Assembly: GCA_029560465.1 (NCBI GenBank)
Contig: JAKQKX010000073.1
Span: 15,411-79,410, forward strand
Length of the DNA: 64,000 nt
Direction: 5' to 3'
Source: Candidatus Omnitrophota bacterium
Lineage (GTDB): Bacteria > Omnitrophota > Gorgyraeia > Zapsychrales > JANLHA01
Translations under genes and position numbers: made by a program
In this document: positions 33,805-62,573 of the stretch, in pieces
Numbering within the stretch: the stretch's first letter is position 1
Layout: the number at the start of each line of letters is the position of its first letter
The notes under the pieces: generated by a model
What the model was told of the DNA's origin: nothing
What the model saw: the letters and a program-made list of their open reading frames with translations, nothing else
Database searches by the model: none

Positions 33805-33879
33805 TGGCTGCCCCGTCTGGACTCGAACCAGAAATGCTTGATCCAGAGTCAAGTGTGTTACCAATTACACCACAGGGCA
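33805..33879 (-). tRNA. tRNA-Gln (anticodon CUG), with the CCA end encoded
   Basis: My manual fold gives a 7-bp acceptor stem (TGCCCTG/CGGGGCA), a D-arm, an anticodon stem CTTGA/TCAAG with loop CTCTGGA, a T-arm GGTTCGAGTCC and a terminal GCCA. Confidence 0.85.
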
Positions 33880-40395: not shown

Positions 40396-40608
40396 TAAAA
40401 AACCCCACCATGCCGTCGGGCTTTAGAAACGGTGAACCCATTCCCTAAGTGGGAACCTCTCCGGAAAATCCAAGGACTTCCCAGAAGTTTAGCGTCCCGT
40501 CCTAAATGTGTTGGTTCAATTTATAGAGCCACTAACGTACACAGCAGGGCAAAAGTTATTATACCATCATTAGGTCTCTTGTAAAACAAAAGCTAAGAAG
40601 GCAGGGTA

Positions 40609-49734: not shown

Positions 49735-49811
49735 TGGTGGGCGGTACAAGACTCGAACTTGTGACCTTCACGATGTCAACGTGACGCTCTAACCAACTGA
49801 GCTAACCGCCC
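49735..49811 (-). tRNA. tRNA-Val (anticodon GAC), with the CCA end encoded
   Basis: My manual fold gives acceptor GGGCGGT/ACCGCCC, D-arm GCTCAGTTGGTTAGAGC, anticodon stem TCACG/CGTGA with loop TTGACAT, and T-arm ACAAGTTCGAGTCTTGT. Confidence 0.85.
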
Positions 49812-49867
49812 ACAAAAATTTTATGCCTTTGTTTTATATTTATGCCCGCAAAGAATGCTCACGTACA

Positions 49868-49950
49868 TGGGCAAGGTGGGAGTCGAACCCACACGACCTT
49901 GCGGTCACAGGATTTTAAGTCCTGCGTGTATGCCATTCCACCACTTGCCC
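49868..49950 (-). tRNA. tRNA-Leu (anticodon UAA), type II with a long variable arm
   Basis: My manual fold gives acceptor GGGCAAG/CTTGCCC, anticodon stem CAGGA/TCCTG with loop CTTAAAA, variable arm TGACCGCAAGGTCGT, and T-arm GTGGGTTCGACTCCCAC. No CCA is encoded. Confidence 0.85.
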
Positions 49951-50036
49951 AAATTCACGCAATGACGCCCGCCCCAAAAAGCCAATTCCTTAAAACCCAT
50001 CGCAACAACTTTTTCGAAATCCGGATTCCAACGAAT

Positions 50037-50111
50037 TGGAGGCGTGGACCGGACTCGAACCGGTGAATAATGGTTTTGCAGACCACTGCCTTACCACTTG
50101 GCTACCACGCC
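50037..50111 (-). tRNA. tRNA-Cys (anticodon GCA), with the CCA end encoded
   Basis: My manual fold gives acceptor GGCGTGG/CCACGCC, discriminator U73, anticodon stem GTGGT/ACCAT with loop CTGCAAA, and T-arm CCGGTTCGAGTCCGG. Confidence 0.85.
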
Positions 50112-51688: not shown

Positions 51689-52543
51689 TTATTCAATATT
51701 TTGTGCCTGCTCCCGCAACCTTTCTATTTTGCTTTTTAAAGCAATAACCGAATTTGAAACAATTTGATCCTGCAGTTTTGATCCTATTGTGTTGGTTTCC
51801 CTCTGCATTTCCTGGGCGATAAAGTCCATTTTCTTCCCAACGGGAACCTGGGCTTTTAACAGCAGCTTGTATTCTTCAACATAATGTTTCAAGCGCGTAA
51901 TTTCCTCATTAATTTCACATCCCTTTTGAAAAGACGGAAATTCTTCCGGGCTTAAAATTTTTTTGTTTTCACGCAAAATTGTTTTCGTCCGAGATTCAAT
52001 ATTGTTGACCTGTGCGCTCATTCTTTTTAAAATATGTGCAATATCCTTTTCTAGGCTTTTCCCCTCACTTCTGCGCATAGACATTAAACTTTTCATTGCT
52101 TTTTGAAGACACATGTTAAGACTACTTGTCCAAAATTTATCAACATCTAAAATAGCCTCTTTCGTTTCCACAACTCCCGGGAGAACAACAAGGCTTGCTA
52201 TTGTTAAAGTATTGTCCAAACTAAAGTCTTTCTGTAACTTTTTGGCTTCTTTAAGATATTCTTGAACAACCCGTTGGTTAAATTGGACATTTTGGGCAGA
52301 TTTTTCAGTAATTTTAACAGACACCGTCACTCGGCCACGAGAAATTTCTTTTTGGACAATATTTTTAATTTTATTCTCTACCGCCCCAAACCCAACAGGC
52401 AGATAACAAACAAAATCCAAATAACGATGATTTTGGCTTTTTATTTCCAAAAAGCCTTTCATTTGTCCAAAAGAAAACGGCACGTTTCCATACCCAGTCA
52501 TACCTACAAGCATATCTTTCCTCTTTCTTGTCGAACTAAACAA
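51689..52543 (-). CDS. yicC: YicC/YloC family stress-induced protein
   Basis: The YicC_N region reads MTGYGN...EIKSQNHRYLD and a DUF1732-like C-terminus follows. The likely start is at about 52513. Confidence 0.8.
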   Translation of the reverse strand: MFSSTRKRKDMLVGMTGYGNVPFSFGQMKGFLEIKSQNHRYLDFVCYLPVGFGAVENKIKNIVQKEISRGRVTVSVKITEKSAQNVQFNQRVVQEYLKEAKKLQKDFSLDNTLTIASLVVLPGVVETKEAILDVDKFWTSSLNMCLQKAMKSLMSMRRSEGKSLEKDIAHILKRMSAQVNNIESRTKTILRENKKILSPEEFPSFQKGCEINEEITRLKHYVEEYKLLLKAQVPVGKKMDFIAQEMQRETNTIGSKLQDQIVSNSVIALKSKIERLREQAQNIE

Positions 52544-52618
52544 AGTTCTCTTCTTTGAAATTGCCCTCTAAACACAAAAAATCCAACAAAATCACGCAAC
52601 TCATTTAATTGCAAACAA

Positions 52619-53497
52619 TTAAGATGCGTTGTTTATATTATTTCTAATTATTTTTAAAATTCTGTCCAAGTCATCTACAGAATAATATTCAATAATTAGT
52701 TTCCCTCGCTTTTTATGCGACTGAATATTAACCTTCGTCCCTAATAATTTCTGCAGCTCCTCTTCTAAATAAACAATCTCGTGGTCTTTGTGCGTATCTT
52801 TTTTGCTTTTCTTAACCGTAGCCGCATTTCTAATTAAAGCTTCTAATTCTCTTACAGAAATTTTTTTATTTAGAACTAAAAGAAATAATTCCTTTTGCAC
52901 CTGAGCATTGTCTACGCCAACAAGCGCCCTAGCATGGCCCATGCTGACTTCCCCGGAAACAACTTTTTCCCGAATGTCATCAGGAAGTTTTAATAAGCGA
53001 ATCATGTTGCTTACAGTAGAAATATCTTTGCTAACGGATTGCGCTACCTGTTCGTATGTCAAATGATGCTCGTCCAACAACTTTTTATACGCAAGTCCTT
53101 CCTCAATAGCATTCAATTCTTCTCTCTGAATATTCTCGATAAGCGCCAAAATCAGGGCTTCGTCATTCGTAACGTTCTTTATAACAACGGGGACGTCCTT
53201 CAGATTCAATGCACGAGCTGCCCGCAACCGCCTCTCTCCTGCAATAACCTCATATCCTCCCCCGTCAACGGGCCTGACTAGCAATGGTTGCAACAAGCCT
53301 TTTTCTTTAATGGAGGACTTTAATTCCTCCATTGTTGTTGTATCATAATTTGTTCTTGGCTGCTGGCTATTGTCCCGGATGACATCCACATTTAAAAAAG
53401 CTATTTCTTCTTTACGTTTCTCCTCATTCCCAGAATATATTTTCTCAGGAATTAGCGCCGACAATCCTTTTCCAAGAACTTTTTTTTCCATAATCAA
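52619..53497 (-). CDS. parB: Chromosome partitioning protein ParB/Spo0J
   Basis: The ParB box reads LLQPLLVRPVDGGGYEVIAGERRLRAA and an HTH follows. Confidence 0.9.
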   Translation of the reverse strand: MIMEKKVLGKGLSALIPEKIYSGNEEKRKEEIAFLNVDVIRDNSQQPRTNYDTTTMEELKSSIKEKGLLQPLLVRPVDGGGYEVIAGERRLRAARALNLKDVPVVIKNVTNDEALILALIENIQREELNAIEEGLAYKKLLDEHHLTYEQVAQSVSKDISTVSNMIRLLKLPDDIREKVVSGEVSMGHARALVGVDNAQVQKELFLLVLNKKISVRELEALIRNAATVKKSKKDTHKDHEIVYLEEELQKLLGTKVNIQSHKKRGKLIIEYYSVDDLDRILKIIRNNINNAS

Positions 53498-53521
53498 AAC
53501 TCCTTAAAAATCGGGAAGCTT

Positions 53522-54598
53522 TTAGAAATCCCGATTATCTTCTAAATAGCTCGACCCTTCTTCCACTTCTTGCTTAATACTTGCCTCCCCTGTCATCCAT
53601 GTCCCCGAGTCGCCTTCTTCTAAATGTAGATCTTCTGTCGTGCTGTCGACTTCGCTAACCGTTGGCCAGGCATCTGCTACTCCATCGCTATTAAAATCGT
53701 TTTTATCAACGATTTTTTTATCTTCATCGGAAACAACATCCAAGCCTTTCTCGCGGTCCTCTGCGAATGTTCCAATTTCCTGCTTAATTATCGCATGCGT
53801 GTTTTCTCTGGGGTCAGCTCCAACCAAATCTGCGTATTTTTCAGGACCAATTAATTCTATCGATAATTCTTTGTACTTTTCCGCCCCTATACAATGCGGA
53901 TCATACAACATAATCGGCTTCCCAAAGCTCGGAGCCTCACTCAACTTAACATTCCTTGGGATAACAGAAGAATAAACTTTATTAGAAAAATAACCATTAA
54001 TCTCATCAATAACCTCATGGGTTAAATTCGTTCTAAAATCCGCCATCGTTAAAACAACACCCTCCACTTCGAGCTTTGGATTTAAATTGTCACGAATCAA
54101 ATTAATCGTATTTAATAATTGTGAAACTCCCTCTAAAGCATAAAATTCACATTGAATGGGAATAAGCACCGAATTACAGGCAACCAAGGCATTCAGGGTT
54201 AACAACCCTAACGACGGAGGTGAATCCACAAAAATATAATCATATTCTTTTTCTACTTTTTCTAAAGCTTTTCTCAACCGTGTTTCTCTGGACAAAATAC
54301 CCACGAGCTCAATTTCTGCGCCAGTAAGATTAATATTGCACGGCATTAAATCTAAACATGGAAAAACATCCTTCACAATGGACTGTTCCGGGTTCGCTTT
54401 TCCCAACAAGACTTCATAGACAGTATTTTCTAAAGCAATTTTGTTAACGCCTACCCCACTTGTCGAGTTTCCTTGAGGATCCATATCAACCAACAAAACT
54501 TTTATACCATAAGAAGCCAAAGCATATGCGAGATTCACGCTAGTCGTTGTTTTTCCGGTACCACCCTTTTGATTACAGACAGATATTATTTTAGCCAT
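53522..54598 (-). CDS. parA: ParA/Soj partition ATPase with a ~100-aa acidic C-terminal extension
   Basis: The deviant Walker A is CNQKGGTGKTTTSVNLA. The ParA core ends near residue 255 and a D/E-rich tail follows. Confidence 0.85.
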   Translation of the reverse strand: MAKIISVCNQKGGTGKTTTSVNLAYALASYGIKVLLVDMDPQGNSTSGVGVNKIALENTVYEVLLGKANPEQSIVKDVFPCLDLMPCNINLTGAEIELVGILSRETRLRKALEKVEKEYDYIFVDSPPSLGLLTLNALVACNSVLIPIQCEFYALEGVSQLLNTINLIRDNLNPKLEVEGVVLTMADFRTNLTHEVIDEINGYFSNKVYSSVIPRNVKLSEAPSFGKPIMLYDPHCIGAEKYKELSIELIGPEKYADLVGADPRENTHAIIKQEIGTFAEDREKGLDVVSDEDKKIVDKNDFNSDGVADAWPTVSEVDSTTEDLHLEEGDSGTWMTGEASIKQEVEEGSSYLEDNRDF

Positions 54599-54656
54599 TT
54601 TTAATTCTCGCTGTTTTCACGTGAAAATTCTATAATATTTTATACCTGAAGCTCCT

Positions 54657-54842
54657 CTATTTTAAAGACACCTTTATTTTGGCCGGCTTAGCACCTTCCA
54701 TTCCAAACAACCCTTTTTGTTCTTCGCAAACAATTTTAATATTAACTTCCTCTCGGCTTACATTTAAAATGTCTAAAGCCTTTTTAATGGCATCCTCTAC
54801 GGTGGCCCCTTCCACATCAATGCTTTTTGAAAAATTATTCAT
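54657..54842 (-). CDS. Jag/KhpB N-terminal-domain-only protein
   Basis: MNNFSKSIDVEGATVEDAIKKALDILNVSREEVNIKIVCEEQKGLFGMEGAKPAKIKV matches the Jag_N domain. No KH or R3H domains follow it. The likely start is the ATG at 54842. Confidence 0.6.
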   Translation of the reverse strand: MNNFSKSIDVEGATVEDAIKKALDILNVSREEVNIKIVCEEQKGLFGMEGAKPAKIKVSLK

Positions 54843-54846
54843 ATTT

Positions 54847-56412
54847 TTAAGTAATTCTCGAAATTTTCCATTGAGTAAAGCTAGACAAAAAATAAAATGT
54901 AGTAAAATACAAAGCCAGTCCGCTGGCAACATTATAAAACACAAAACCTATCATCAAAGGAAAGAAAAACATCATAATTTTCTGACTAGATTCTTGAGCC
55001 GGATCAGAAACGACCATGTTTTTAATAGAAAATTTCTGTTGTACAATCATAATAATTATCATTAAAATTGGTAAAATATTAAAATATTCCCCAACAAAAG
55101 GTAATGCCGTCGGAAAAGCGAAAAGATGGTCGGGCTGAGACAAATCTTTTATCCAAAGGAATTTGGCATTTTTAAACGCAACGGATCTCCATAATACCTG
55201 ATAAACACCTATAAAAAAAGGCATTTGTAGCAACAACGGCAAACATCCACCAAAAGGATTAACCTGATGCTTTTTATATAATTCCATTGTTTCCTTTTGG
55301 AGTTTTTGTGGGTTATTTTTATGCTGTTCCTTTATTTTTAAAATTTCGGGTTGCAATGCCTGAATCTTTTTCATAGATTTCATGCCGCTTATAGATAATG
55401 GATACATCATAAGATAAATAAAAATTGCGGTTAAAATTATGCAAACGCCCCAAGTCGGGATTATTTTATAAAGAAAATGTAAGAATTTATATACTATTTT
55501 AGAAATCTCATTCAAAATTCCAAAATTTGAAAATCTTACAATCTTTTTAAAATCATAAGGATAGGAAGATAAAAGCGTTAGATCTTGTGGTCCAAAAAAC
55601 AAAACAGAATCAAAAGTTGAAAAATCGCTGCTATCAGAAATATTTTCGCCCTTAATTATAAACTCTAATTTATTATTTTGAAATTTTGTATAATATCCTT
55701 TATTTTTATATAATGGTTTATATATAGCGCAAAAATATCGGTCCCGAAAACCAATCCAGGCCACCTCTTCCGTAAAATCAACCTCGTCTTTATTAGATAA
55801 TTTATACGCATTGGCCTTTCGCGCCACCGATTGCGTTGAGGCCACAGAATATTCTAATAAAGCTTTATCCTGTGCTTTAATCACATTTTTGTCCAAACTG
55901 CCAACGTCCAAACTGAATCCTTTAATATTAATATTACTATTATTTTTAATATTAATACTATTTTCTATTAAATAATCATTATTAGATAGTAAATATTTTT
56001 TTATAATTTGACGTCCTTCTTTTTCCAGAGAATATTTGACAAAAGAATCTGTTTTTTCCAAAACCCGATAACAGCTATTACTATAAAAATCTTCCTGATT
56101 AATATCTGTTATTGGCAAAGAAACATTGTACTCTTTAAGCTCAATGTGTTTAATCCGGGCCCCCATGTTGGAAAAAATAACCGTCAATTTGTTATTATCT
56201 AAAATAACTAATTCTTCACACTGCTGGCTCTCGGCAGAAGGGACATCCGGAGCCGAAGACAAGGAACTCGATAAATTATCTTGAGTTTCTTTAGATTTTA
56301 AAGAAAGGTCTTGTCTTTTATTTTGGGAGGGGGTAGAAGAAGGATTAACTAGGGCCCAAAAAAATAATACAAAAAAGGATAAACTTATAGCAAGTAATAG
56401 TCTTTTTTCCAT
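54847..56412 (-). CDS. yidC: Membrane protein insertase YidC
   Basis: The 521-aa ORF has an N-terminal transmembrane helix, a periplasmic domain, and the conserved C-terminal five-helix core (GGCLPLLLQMPFFIGVYQVL). Confidence 0.9.
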   Translation of the reverse strand: MEKRLLLAISLSFFVLFFWALVNPSSTPSQNKRQDLSLKSKETQDNLSSSLSSAPDVPSAESQQCEELVILDNNKLTVIFSNMGARIKHIELKEYNVSLPITDINQEDFYSNSCYRVLEKTDSFVKYSLEKEGRQIIKKYLLSNNDYLIENSINIKNNSNINIKGFSLDVGSLDKNVIKAQDKALLEYSVASTQSVARKANAYKLSNKDEVDFTEEVAWIGFRDRYFCAIYKPLYKNKGYYTKFQNNKLEFIIKGENISDSSDFSTFDSVLFFGPQDLTLLSSYPYDFKKIVRFSNFGILNEISKIVYKFLHFLYKIIPTWGVCIILTAIFIYLMMYPLSISGMKSMKKIQALQPEILKIKEQHKNNPQKLQKETMELYKKHQVNPFGGCLPLLLQMPFFIGVYQVLWRSVAFKNAKFLWIKDLSQPDHLFAFPTALPFVGEYFNILPILMIIIMIVQQKFSIKNMVVSDPAQESSQKIMMFFFPLMIGFVFYNVASGLALYFTTFYFLSSFTQWKISRIT

Positions 56413-56416
56413 AAAA

Positions 56417-56626
56417 TTACCTTACAGGATCGTAGCCGCCTTTAGAAAAAGGTGTACAACGCATTATACGCCATACAGACAGAACCATTCCTCGGAAAAA
56501 TCCATGACGGCGAATGGCTTCAAGGGCATAATTTGAACATGAAGGATAATAACGGCAAGTACTTGGGAAAAAAATACGGCTTACCTTTTGATAAGATTTT
56601 ATCAATACCGATAACAATCTAATCAT
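56417..56626 (-). CDS. yidD: Membrane protein insertion efficiency factor YidD
   Basis: LIKSYQKVSRIFFPSTCRYYPSCSNYALEAIRRHGFFRGMVLSVWRIMRCTPFSKGGYDPV matches YidD. The start is the ATG at 56626. The track ORF extends upstream over the rpmH 3' end. Confidence 0.8.
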   Translation of the reverse strand: MIRLLSVLIKSYQKVSRIFFPSTCRYYPSCSNYALEAIRRHGFFRGMVLSVWRIMRCTPFSKGGYDPVR

Positions 56627-56648
56627 TAGAAAATGCCCTACCGAAAAA

Positions 56649-56786
56649 TTACTTGGAGAGACGAATTCTGCCTTTTGCGCGACGTCGACGGAGAACATCT
56701 TGGCCGTCGGCAGTTGACATCCTTTTTCGAAAGCCGTGAGTTCTTTTTCCTTTTAATATTGTAGGGGTTGTGAGTCCTTTTTTCAT
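56649..56786 (-). CDS. rpmH: 50S ribosomal protein L34
   Basis: I translated this 45-aa ORF by hand (it is not in the ORF track): [45 protein letters not shown]. Confidence 0.8.
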
Positions 56787-57097
56787 AATTGGACAATTAT
56801 AACATAGGGTTAAGCTTAGTCAAGTTTTTTCATTTTTATTTAGAATAAAAAAGCCGTATTTTAATAGTGTTATAATTTTTTTCTTTGCTTTCTCGAGGAG
56901 AAAAGAATATAATTAAAATTTGATTTTAATAAAGCTGTAAGTTTTTCTCTTGTATTCACCTTCTGCTGAATTAAAAGTTGCATTCACATTTTTGTTTGCT
57001 ATAATATATAAACTTTATGTTTCTTTTTATTCGAAAAATCAACTCCAAATAAGTTTTCGAAGATATCTTCATTCATATTTCAAAGGGCTTCTTTTTA

Positions 57098-57117
57098 AAA
57101 ATCCACAGTTGTGGAAA
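57098..57117. promoter_or_regulatory. Inverted pair of DnaA boxes (AAATCCACA gt TGTGGAAAA)
   Basis: The TCCACA core faces its reverse complement. The right-hand box equals TTTTCCACA, matching TTWTNCACA. Confidence 0.6.
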
Positions 57118-57184
57118 ACCTGTTAATTATTTTTGTTTTTCCAGTTAACTTATTCAAAATTAATCATTTACAAAACGTTTAGCT

Positions 57185-57193
57185 TGTGTAAAA
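57185..57193 (-). promoter_or_regulatory. DnaA box (TTTTACACA on the minus strand) just upstream of dnaA
   Basis: The plus strand reads TGTGTAAAA, 39 nt upstream of the dnaA ATG. Confidence 0.5.
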
Positions 57194-57231
57194 ACATTCT
57201 TTTTCGCAACTAAAAACACCCATCCTCGGCC

Positions 57232-58572
57232 ATGAACCTATTGCTCCTGTGGGAAAAAATTCAGCCCCAAATTCGCGAACAGTTAGGGGCAACAACTTAC
57301 GACACGTGGTTTTCTTCCATTCAAATACAATCTCCCAATTCAGACAATCTTATTATTAACACTCCTGATGAATTTTTCCAAAACTGGTTTATAGAACACT
57401 ACCTTCCAATTATTAAACACCATCTTGGTTCTCTCATAAACCATCAAATTCATTACGAAGTCGCCATAAACCCATTAGAGGTTCCAAACAAGCCGGCAAC
57501 ACAACAAATCATCCACAACGAAAACCTCGCTCCTAAAAAAGAAGACCAGCTACCCATTCATCTCAACCCACGATTTTCTTTTGATAATTTCGTTGTCGGG
57601 CCATCGAACAGGTTTGCTTATTCGGCCTGCATGGCTGTCGCAGAATCCCCGGCGAAGGCGTATAACCCTCTATTTATATATGGTCATGTTGGGCTTGGGA
57701 AAACCCACCTCATGCAGGCGATCACACATCAAATTCAAAAAAACTCTCCAAACAGCACCTGTTGTTATCTTTCTTCTGAACGATTCACAAATGAATTAAT
57801 CGACGCTATCCGGCATCGATCTACCGCTAATTTCAGAAAAAAATACCGGCATATCGATGTTTTACTTATAGATGATATCCACTTCCTGGCAGGCAAAGAG
57901 TCCACGCAGGAAGAATTCTTCCATACATTTAACACGCTTCATAATAATCACAAACAAATCATCATATCTTCTGATCGTCCTCCAAAAGAAATATCCAATT
58001 TAGAAGAACGCTTAAGTTCCCGTTTTGCTTGGGGCTTAATCACTGATATTCAACCGCCGGATTTTGAAACGCGGGTCGCAATATTAAGAAAAAAAGTTGA
58101 AAAAGAGCCCGTTAGGGTTCCTGAAGAAGTAATTACATTTATCGCTGAACAAATTAAAACTAATATTCGAGAGCTAGAGGGTGCGCTCATCAGAGTTTTA
58201 GCTTATTCTTTGCTAGAAGAACATCCCATCACTTTGGATATGACAAAAATTGTCCTCCGAGATATGGTTAAAGAAACGGTTAAAATTATCAGCATCGAAA
58301 TGATTCAAAAAACCGTTGCTGAGTTTTTTAATATCTCTTGTTCTGATTTAAAAGCCAAAAAAAGAACTCAAAATATTTTAAAACCAAGACAAGTTGCAAT
58401 GTATTTATCAAGACGTTTAACGAATCTTTCGCTACCGGAGATAGGAAATTCTTTCGGTGGGAAAGATCACACAACGGTATTGCATTCATTAAGAAAAATA
58501 GAGGAGAATTTAAAGGAAGATTTTCAATTAAAAAATGAAATAGAAAAATTACTAACAACATTAAAACAATAA
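57232..58572 (+). CDS. dnaA: Chromosomal replication initiator protein DnaA
   Basis: The AAA+ Walker A is GHVGLGKTHLMQAI and the Walker B is LLIDDIHFLAGKE. Domain IV carries the DNA-binding HTH. Confidence 0.95.
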   Translation: MNLLLLWEKIQPQIREQLGATTYDTWFSSIQIQSPNSDNLIINTPDEFFQNWFIEHYLPIIKHHLGSLINHQIHYEVAINPLEVPNKPATQQIIHNENLAPKKEDQLPIHLNPRFSFDNFVVGPSNRFAYSACMAVAESPAKAYNPLFIYGHVGLGKTHLMQAITHQIQKNSPNSTCCYLSSERFTNELIDAIRHRSTANFRKKYRHIDVLLIDDIHFLAGKESTQEEFFHTFNTLHNNHKQIIISSDRPPKEISNLEERLSSRFAWGLITDIQPPDFETRVAILRKKVEKEPVRVPEEVITFIAEQIKTNIRELEGALIRVLAYSLLEEHPITLDMTKIVLRDMVKETVKIISIEMIQKTVAEFFNISCSDLKAKKRTQNILKPRQVAMYLSRRLTNLSLPEIGNSFGGKDHTTVLHSLRKIEENLKEDFQLKNEIEKLLTTLKQ

Positions 58573-58651
58573 TCCTCCAAATACACACGGCTTTTCAACA
58601 AAAATTATTTATTTAACTTGTTATATTTCAACGTGTTTTAACCTTATTCAA

Positions 58652-58660
58652 TTTTTCACA
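58652..58660 (+). promoter_or_regulatory. DnaA box (TTTTTCACA) in the dnaA–dnaN spacer
   Basis: The spacer is AT-rich, and the 9-mer matches TTWTNCACA. Confidence 0.45.
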
Positions 58661-58728
58661 AGCTCTACTATTATGACTACGGTCTATTATAAATAATTAA
58701 TCGAATTAGTAGCAAAAGTGGGGATTTT

Positions 58729-59817
58729 ATGAAAATCAAAATTAGTAAAGAAAAATTATTAGAAAGCATCCAAATCGTACAAAATATCGTTTCATCCAAA
58801 ACAACACTTCCTATCCTTTCTAATATATTATTAGAAACAAAAGGAAAAGAATTAAAAGTAAACACAACCGATTTGGATATTGGTATTTCCTGTGGAATAC
58901 CTGTAGATATTATTGAAGAAGGGTCAATAACAATTCCAGCAAAAAGATTTAGCGATATTGTCAAAGAATTACCCTCTGGGGATATTTCTATTCATGTGAA
59001 AAAAAATAATCAGGTTGACATTGATGGAGAAAAATGCCGTTTTAAATTATTGGGGTTGCCTCGGGAAGAATTTCCAAAATTTCCGGAATTTAAAGACAGG
59101 GAAGTGATTAAAATAGAGCAGGCTGTTTTAAAGGAAATGATCCGCTTGACATCTTTCGCTGTTTCTCATGAAGAAACCCGATATATTTTAAATGGTATTT
59201 TAATAGAAATTAATGATAGTAACATAAAAATGGTTGCCACGGATGGAAAAAGGTTGGCAAAGGCTGACGATAAAATTTTAACACCAACTAAAAAAGAAAT
59301 TTCGGTCATTGTTCCTATAAAAGCAATACAAGAAATCTTTCGGAATTTACATGATGAAGGGGAAGTTTCCTTTGTTGTTGGAAATAATCAAGTTTTGTTT
59401 GATATTGACGGAATTTTAATAGCAACCCGGATTATAGAAGGGGATTTCCCAAATTATAATCAAGTTATTCCAAGCCCAATGACAACAAAAATAAAAATTC
59501 ATACACAACAATTTTTAAGCGCTATTCGTCGGGCTAATTTGCTTTCTACTCCGGATTTTCAGGCGATTAAGTTCGAAGTTTTTTCTGACAAGATCGTTGT
59601 TTCTAAAATTACTCCCGATGTCGGGGAATCCCGGGAAGAGGTCCCTATTCAGTATAGCGGAAAAGAGTTGGTAGTCGGGTTTAATCCGCAGTTTTTTATA
59701 GATGTTTTAAAAAATATTAACAGTAATAATATTGATTTAGAATTGTTGGGTCCGGATAAAGCCGCGGTGATTCGGCAGGAAAACTATTTGTATTTGGCTT
59801 TACCTATGCGCATATGA
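58729..59817 (+). CDS. dnaN: DNA polymerase III beta sliding clamp
   Basis: The 362-aa ORF reads MKIKISKEKLLESIQIVQNIVSSKTTLPILSNILLE and has a three-domain clamp architecture. Confidence 0.9.
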   Translation: MKIKISKEKLLESIQIVQNIVSSKTTLPILSNILLETKGKELKVNTTDLDIGISCGIPVDIIEEGSITIPAKRFSDIVKELPSGDISIHVKKNNQVDIDGEKCRFKLLGLPREEFPKFPEFKDREVIKIEQAVLKEMIRLTSFAVSHEETRYILNGILIEINDSNIKMVATDGKRLAKADDKILTPTKKEISVIVPIKAIQEIFRNLHDEGEVSFVVGNNQVLFDIDGILIATRIIEGDFPNYNQVIPSPMTTKIKIHTQQFLSAIRRANLLSTPDFQAIKFEVFSDKIVVSKITPDVGESREEVPIQYSGKELVVGFNPQFFIDVLKNINSNNIDLELLGPDKAAVIRQENYLYLALPMRI

Positions 59818-59829
59818 AAAATTGACAGC

Positions 59830-62573
<2,744 letters not shown>

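Follow-up and report, generated by a model that had tools for sequence, protein, structure and literature searches.

The 64,000-nucleotide stretch of DNA analysed here (the window) comes from an uncultivated Candidatus Omnitrophota bacterium of anaerobic-digester and wastewater metagenomes, i.e. of mesophilic habitats, and belongs to a genome of about 3.3 Mb that is not a reduced symbiont genome. The genes and features around rpmH are arranged as follows:

54657..54842, minus strand: gene for a 61-aa protein consisting of a Jag_N domain only (Pfam Jag_N, 6e-19), the last cistron
54847..56412, minus strand: yidC, membrane insertase of 521 aa (Pfam 60KD_IMP, PF02096, and YidC_periplas, PF14849; NCBI HPN55272.1)
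56417..56626, minus strand: yidD, membrane protein insertion efficiency factor of 69 aa (Pfam PF01809, 1.9e-28, profile positions 2–67)
56627..56648, minus strand: rpmH–yidD spacer of 22 nt, the usual site of rnpA
56649..56786, minus strand: rpmH, ribosomal protein L34 of 45 aa (open reading frame; Pfam PF00468 Ribosomal_L34, 1.9e-15), the first cistron
56796..56823, minus strand: near-consensus sigma-70 promoter, TTGACT-16-TATAAT with TG in front (11 of 12 matches)
56787..57231, no strand: divergent rpmH–dnaA intergenic region, 26% GC, with short open reading frames only and no rnpA remnant
57232..58572, plus strand: dnaA (Pfam DnaA_N, Bac_DnaA and Bac_DnaA_C), divergent from rpmH

The rpmH gene ends with its TAA stop codon at 56649 and yidD opens with an ATG at 56626, which leaves a gap of exactly 22 nt and thus no room for a gene of 110–135 aa. 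The original prediction had read rpmH from 56786 to 56649 and yidD from 56626 after 22 nt, and both the open reading frames and the Pfam matches bear this out. The rpmH product is also called L34 in independent assemblies, and the yidD product is identical to NCBI HPN55271.1. The yidC gene starts 4 nt past the yidD stop and the Jag_N-only gene follows 4 nt beyond yidC, giving gaps of 22, 4 and 4 nt. As a near-consensus promoter is located upstream, the four genes rpmH, yidD, yidC and the Jag_N-only gene look like one operon. The -10 hexamer of this promoter ends 9 nt upstream of the rpmH start codon and rpmH has no recognisable Shine-Dalgarno sequence, which suggests that the rpmH mRNA is probably leaderless or nearly so. 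Several public gene calls (L081, L084, L085 and L097) omit yidD and place a 56-aa antisense open reading frame there, so automated annotation of the rpmH–yidD locus is unreliable.

On the other side of the intergenic region, which contains a single DnaA-box-like palindrome (57102–57118), the genes dnaA–dnaN–dciA–gyrB–gyrA run divergently from the rpmH operon from 57232 onwards. The sign of the GC skew flips at dnaA, anchoring the locus at the replication origin. The dciA gene (59830-60114, plus strand), between dnaN and gyrB, is kept in both rnpA-less and rnpA-retaining Omnitrophota. A GC trough of about 8.5 kb (51700-60100) spans yicC, parB, parA, jagN, yidC, yidD, dnaA, dnaN and dciA, with a GC content of 30–39% (26% in the intergenic region) against 45–54% in the rest of the window. 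The trough is also found in the relatives L090 and L087, and is therefore a lineage trait of the origin region rather than the mark of a chimera. The ParA protein (53522-54598, minus strand) has 358 aa, of which about 100 form an acidic tail at the C-terminus; the tail is missing in more distant relatives (271–277 aa in L091 and L006), while the ParA of L090 comprises 347 aa.

The gene pair rpmH–rnpA is among the most conserved in bacteria. In the window, rnpA is not present at the rpmH–yidD locus. A crude RnpA profile of three sequences (E. coli, B. subtilis and T. maritima) gave no match better than E = 0.37 against the six-frame translation of the window, and a second profile, built from Omnitrophota RnpA sequences, gave no match against the same translation. 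With RnpA profiles negative in all frames, the original prediction that this origin-proximal locus is canonical except for the lack of rnpA is upheld. As a control, 80 dnaA-anchored loci from GTDB species genomes were used, in 57 of which L34 was detected. The three-sequence profile found an RnpA open reading frame adjoining L34 in 54 of these 57, covering Bacillota, Acidobacteriota, Nitrospirota, Actinomycetota, Proteobacteria and others, and is thus sensitive enough. The three exceptions are the two Omnitrophota loci L001 and L002 and a short fragment of an Edaphobacter metagenome-assembled genome (L067, 1-1503). The latter is the sole control outside the Omnitrophota that has L34 but in which RnpA was undetected downstream, which may be due to the fragmentary contig or to a diverged gene.

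One explanation for the missing gene is that rnpA is hidden at the locus, either overlapping rpmH as in Thermus, or as an N-terminal extension of yidD, or behind an assembly or annotation artefact. The yidD frame is indeed open upstream to 56752, overlapping rpmH, and a second open reading frame of 52 codons overlaps rpmH in a different frame. However, neither of these two scores with either RnpA profile, and the yidD extension amounts to merely 42 codons and is not conserved in L002 (in-frame extension to 56698). An overlapping rnpA of the Thermus kind and an RnpA–YidD fusion were rejected for these reasons. The locus sequence is, moreover, identical in JGI, ENA, NCBI and Logan assemblies (at least six independent ones, from different samples), and thus not an assembly or frameshift artefact, and the NCBI (PGAP) accessions are consecutive (DnaA HPN55269, YidD HPN55271, YidC HPN55272). 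The GC trough (35%) had raised the possibility of a chimeric assembly, which was likewise discarded, given the identical assemblies and the conservation of the trough in relatives. A hidden rnpA is therefore exceedingly improbable, and artefacts and other trivial explanations taken together carry a very small probability.

The locus without rnpA is not confined to the window. The order parB–parA–jagN–yidC–(yidD)–rpmH followed by dnaA–dnaN–dciA–gyrB was found, with no rnpA, in seven lineages including that of the window; a YidC-based metagenome scan yielded only three loci. The relatives lacking rnpA are L087 (71% YidC identity to the window), L090 (61% YidC identity, on a contig of 3.36 Mb), L001 and L002 (both about 58% DnaA identity), L093 (44% YidC identity) and L091 (43% YidC identity; Ca. 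Zapsychrus). In Seymour et al. 2023, L002 (RIFCSPLOWO2_12_FULL_51_8) is placed in the Gygaellales and Zapsychrus in the Zapsychrales, both orders of the class Velamenicoccia (GTDB c__Koll11). The rnpA-less locus thus extends to a whole Omnitrophota clade of at least two orders. In the Zapsychrus-type relatives L091 (4815-5086) and L093 (9735-10001), yidD was also undetected at the locus, where the distance from rpmH to yidC is 127 and 74 nt, respectively, so that the operon is reduced further.

Other Omnitrophota, as labelled at NCBI, show the canonical order gyrA–gyrB–dciA–dnaN–dnaA followed by rpmH–rnpA–(yidD)–yidC–mnmG–parA–parB, with an RnpA of the PF00825 family. These are L006, L100 (GCA_043718225.1), L102 (GCA_020632475.1; RnpA MCB9799842.1), L106, L107, L104/105 and one further contig. 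Given this order in the other Omnitrophota, rnpA (together with mnmG) was lost from the operon in the clade of the window, and the rnpA-less rpmH operon is a derived state that arose by precise excision from an ancestrally canonical operon. The slot after yidC is occupied by the Jag_N-only gene here and by mnmG in the rnpA-retaining Omnitrophota. This gene, a Jag/KhpB homologue cut down to the Jag_N domain with neither KH nor R3H, is kept across the rnpA-less clade (L001, L002, L087, L090, L091 and L093).

The RNA features of the window are the following:

33805-33879, minus strand: tRNA-Gln, which encodes the 3'-CCA
40398-40553, minus strand: 6S RNA gene (Rfam RF00013, 55 bits), between an MgsA-like ATPase gene and pheT
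49735..50111, minus strand: cluster of tRNA-Cys, tRNA-Leu and tRNA-Val, with spacers of 85 and 55 nt

This tRNA cluster recurs throughout the clade and is even tighter in relatives, where the spacers measure 19 and 8 nt (L001) or 9 and 4 nt (L091), and tRNA-Cys begins 5 nt past the stop codon of an upstream flavoprotein (CoaBC-like) gene. Since individual promoters cannot fit into such tight spacing, the tRNAs must be excised from a polycistronic precursor, and an endonucleolytic 5' maturation of tRNA, i.e. an RNase P-type activity, is still required. A life without any RNase P on leaderless tRNAs, of the kind seen in Nanoarchaeum equitans, has nothing in its favour except that rnpA and rnpB are lacking in the window, and it is contradicted by the spacers and by the short distance between tRNA-Cys and the coding gene. 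As a separate promoter for each tRNA, starting at +1, is impossible given this spacing, the idea was dropped and has next to no chance of being correct.

The 3'-CCA is encoded in three of the four tRNA genes of the window (Gln, Val and Cys, not Leu). RNA-based RNase P makes use of the CCA, whereas for the Hydrogenobacter HARP a CCA on the substrate lowers the rate of cleavage in vitro about 10-fold (PMC12153264), and the encoded CCA therefore fits an RNA-based RNase P better than HARP, a weak hint in favour of the RNA-based enzyme.

In order to find parts of an RNase P near the locus, the window was searched together with flanks of about 18 kb (some 10 kb on the left side, 8.5 kb on the right), and neither rnpA nor rnpB was found in this region. 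The Rfam matches in the window consist of the four tRNAs and the 6S RNA; RNase P RNA (RF00010/RF00011) gave no match there even at E ≤ 1, nor was it found by Rfam in related loci and flanks totalling about 190 kb, the part of the genome covered being less than 3%. None of the 55 open reading frames of the window, which represent nearly all its likely genes, has a PIN_5, NYN or Ribonuclease_P domain in Pfam, and the two likely real genes devoid of a Pfam match encode membrane or periplasmic proteins. As each of the 55 either has an ordinary match or encodes a membrane protein, the idea that unannotated reading frames of the window conceal an RnpA, a HARP or a PIN/NYN nuclease was discarded.

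An RNase P consisting of protein only, of the HARP type (Aq_880, PIN_5) as in Aquifex, was put forward in the original prediction as one way to account for the gap. While the absence of rnpA from the locus stands and now applies to the whole clade, this part of the interpretation fared poorly, as no HARP turned up in the window or its flanks and no Omnitrophota were listed in a published HARP survey. With Aq_880 as query (a sequence 100% identical to PDB 7F3E), no homologue was found in the window, the flanks of about 18 kb or the related loci, nor was a match to the HARP family PF08745 in the same sequences. Against 5.8 billion proteins, the best 120 matches of Aq_880 were all of the Aquifex type, nearly all the named ones being labelled Aquificota; these 120 score far above HARPs from outside the Aquificota and are uninformative for Omnitrophota. 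In favour of a HARP, Aquifex shares the reduced gene order, and two related phyla, Verrucomicrobia and Planctomycetes, have sporadic HARPs. Bacteria with HARP as their only RNase P comprise Aquificae, some Nitrospirae and some genomes reported as 'unclassified bacteria' (PMC6380272), a category that speaks for this possibility. However, the 2025 survey of more than one million genomes lists 178 bacterial HARPs from five orders, with no 'Omnitroph' entry in those of its supplementary tables that are readable as text (PMC12153264), and the mesophilic habitats and the many tRNA genes encoding CCA also argue against it. A HARP in the clade of the window is unlikely, and an Aquifex-like solution built on it highly so.

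A search seeded with the RnpA of L006 retrieved 14 close relatives only, while a profile of the L006-type RnpA gave 6578 matches at E ≤ 0.001 among 1.84 billion representative proteins, with an Omnitrophota-labelled RnpA (P0291) as a high-ranking representative. The genomic context was checked for seven of about 150 RnpA representatives from the Omnitrophota-seeded searches, including P0254 (from the search seeded with L006), P0291 and four of the representatives most similar to P0291. All seven are in the canonical, rpmH-linked context, none is relocated, and none of these checked RnpA proteins is from the clade of the window. These contexts argue, if weakly, against an rnpA conserved at a relocated site. 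In the readable part of the source data of Seymour et al., K03536, PF00825 or TIGR00188 is recorded in three Omnitrophota genomes: 58 (order B26-G9), 104 (SKK-01, class Gorgyraia) and 194 (class Omnitrophia), none of the three belonging to the Velamenicoccia. None of the papers searched connects RNase P or its genes rnpA and rnpB with Omnitrophota or Velamenicoccus.

These results bear on a second explanation, in which RnpA has been lost from the genomes of the class altogether and the enzyme consists of RNA alone, of RNA with a non-homologous protein, or of a new protein-only enzyme other than HARP. Such a loss is a possible but less probable reading. It would be consistent with the precise excision of a single cistron from a conserved operon, as in Aquifex where the loss is real, with the conservation of this state across at least two orders, with the lack of any relocated gene among the seven RnpA proteins checked, and with RnpA annotations that, as far as the published data are readable, come from other classes only. 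On the other hand, the scans covered the window, its flanks and related loci rather than a whole genome, and context was checked for just seven of the approximately 150 RnpA representatives. Nearly all bacteria have RnpA and model species cannot live without it, no candidate replacement nuclease is present in the window, and the encoded CCA ends fit the classical RNA enzyme. In its full form, in which the Velamenicoccia (Zapsychrales, Gygaellales, the lineage of the window and probably Velamenicoccus archaeovorus) would be free of RnpA across genomes of 1–3 Mb and mature their polycistronic pre-tRNAs by neither RNA plus RnpA nor HARP, this scenario is again a tentative one.

A classical RNA-based RNase P encoded by rnpA and rnpB elsewhere in the genome is the reading we somewhat favour. 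In an ancestor of the clade, the rnpA cistron would have been removed precisely, leaving rpmH–yidD–yidC, while the 5' ends of the tRNAs would still be matured by the classical enzyme. The rnpB gene and a relocated, possibly diverged, rnpA would then lie beyond the window, in the remaining 98% or so of the 3.3-Mb genome, and the outcome would be an ancient rearrangement of an operon, not a change of enzyme. The points counted in support, which together make this reading slightly better than even, are the polycistronic tRNA genes, the CCA encoded in three of four of them, the large genome and the lack of an Omnitrophota HARP in the survey. The near-universal occurrence of RnpA in bacteria (PMC6380272) and its record in the three Omnitrophota genomes of other classes were also counted in its favour. 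Omnitrophota core markers can escape detection by HMMs, e.g. the SRP54 M domain (PMC10066038), and a diverged RnpA is therefore plausible. Against a classical enzyme encoded elsewhere, no rnpA or RNase P RNA of the clade was found in the window and its flanks of about 18 kb, the RnpA-positive genomes in the readable part of the published Omnitrophota data are all outside the Velamenicoccia, and the seven checked RnpA genes are all in the canonical context. The linkage of rpmH and rnpA in 54 of the 57 control loci makes a relocation of rnpA alone unusual in itself. Also, Aquifex, the sole well-studied precedent for rpmH–yidD–yidC, truly lacks rnpA and rnpB, an analogy that may point the other way.

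Taken together, the rpmH operon of a major uncultivated class is reduced in the manner of Aquifex, a derived state shared across the clade. To our knowledge, the Aquificaceae are the only free-living bacteria with rpmH–yidD–yidC in place of the rnpA-containing order, and it was this anomaly that led to the discovery of HARP, an RNA-free RNase P. Here, an equally precise deletion has become fixed throughout a large class of uncultivated mesophiles whose genomes are of normal size, which points either to a rare relocation of an essential gene, the ordinary outcome, or to another lineage having abandoned the classical RNase P independently of the first. If true, the latter would be important for the evolution of RNase P and for the question why RNA catalysis is retained; the loss from the locus matters only if rnpA is also absent from the rest of the genome. 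Between a change of synteny alone and a genuine change of RNase P, a classical enzyme encoded elsewhere is considered modestly probable and a loss not involving HARP less so.

Compared to the canonical operon of E. coli, B. subtilis and the Omnitrophota genome GCA_020632475.1, the window shares rpmH, yidD and yidC, a dnaA–dnaN pair that runs divergently and parA–parB further downstream, all in the usual order and orientation. It differs in the lack of rnpA, in the lack of mnmG at the locus and in a Jag protein restricted to its N-terminal domain. In Thermus, the rnpA frame reportedly covers rpmH out of frame. Short open frames also extend over rpmH on the same strand in the window, but these comprise 52 and 42 codons and have no similarity to RnpA. 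The closest match in gene order is Aquifex (A. aeolicus and A. pyrophilus), where rpmH–yidD–yidC without rnpA is identical to the arrangement in the window (PMC10941002), and where clustered tRNA genes, as in the window, imply that an RNase P-type activity is required. While the absence of rnpA and rnpB has been shown genome-wide in Aquifex, which uses HARP, the corresponding result here is that none was found within the window and flanks scanned. Unlike Aquifex, the organism of the window is a mesophile of another phylum with a genome of about 3.3 Mb, and its relatives L091 and L093 are without a detected yidD as well. Like the window, the tiny genomes of endosymbionts such as Carsonella, Tremblaya, Zinderia and others have no rnpA in the expected arrangement (PMC7191817). 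These genomes, however, are of 0.14–0.26 Mb and have lost rnpA/rnpB, rpmH and yidD (PMC7191817), whereas the genome to which the window belongs is of about 3.3 Mb and retains rpmH, yidD and yidC intact.
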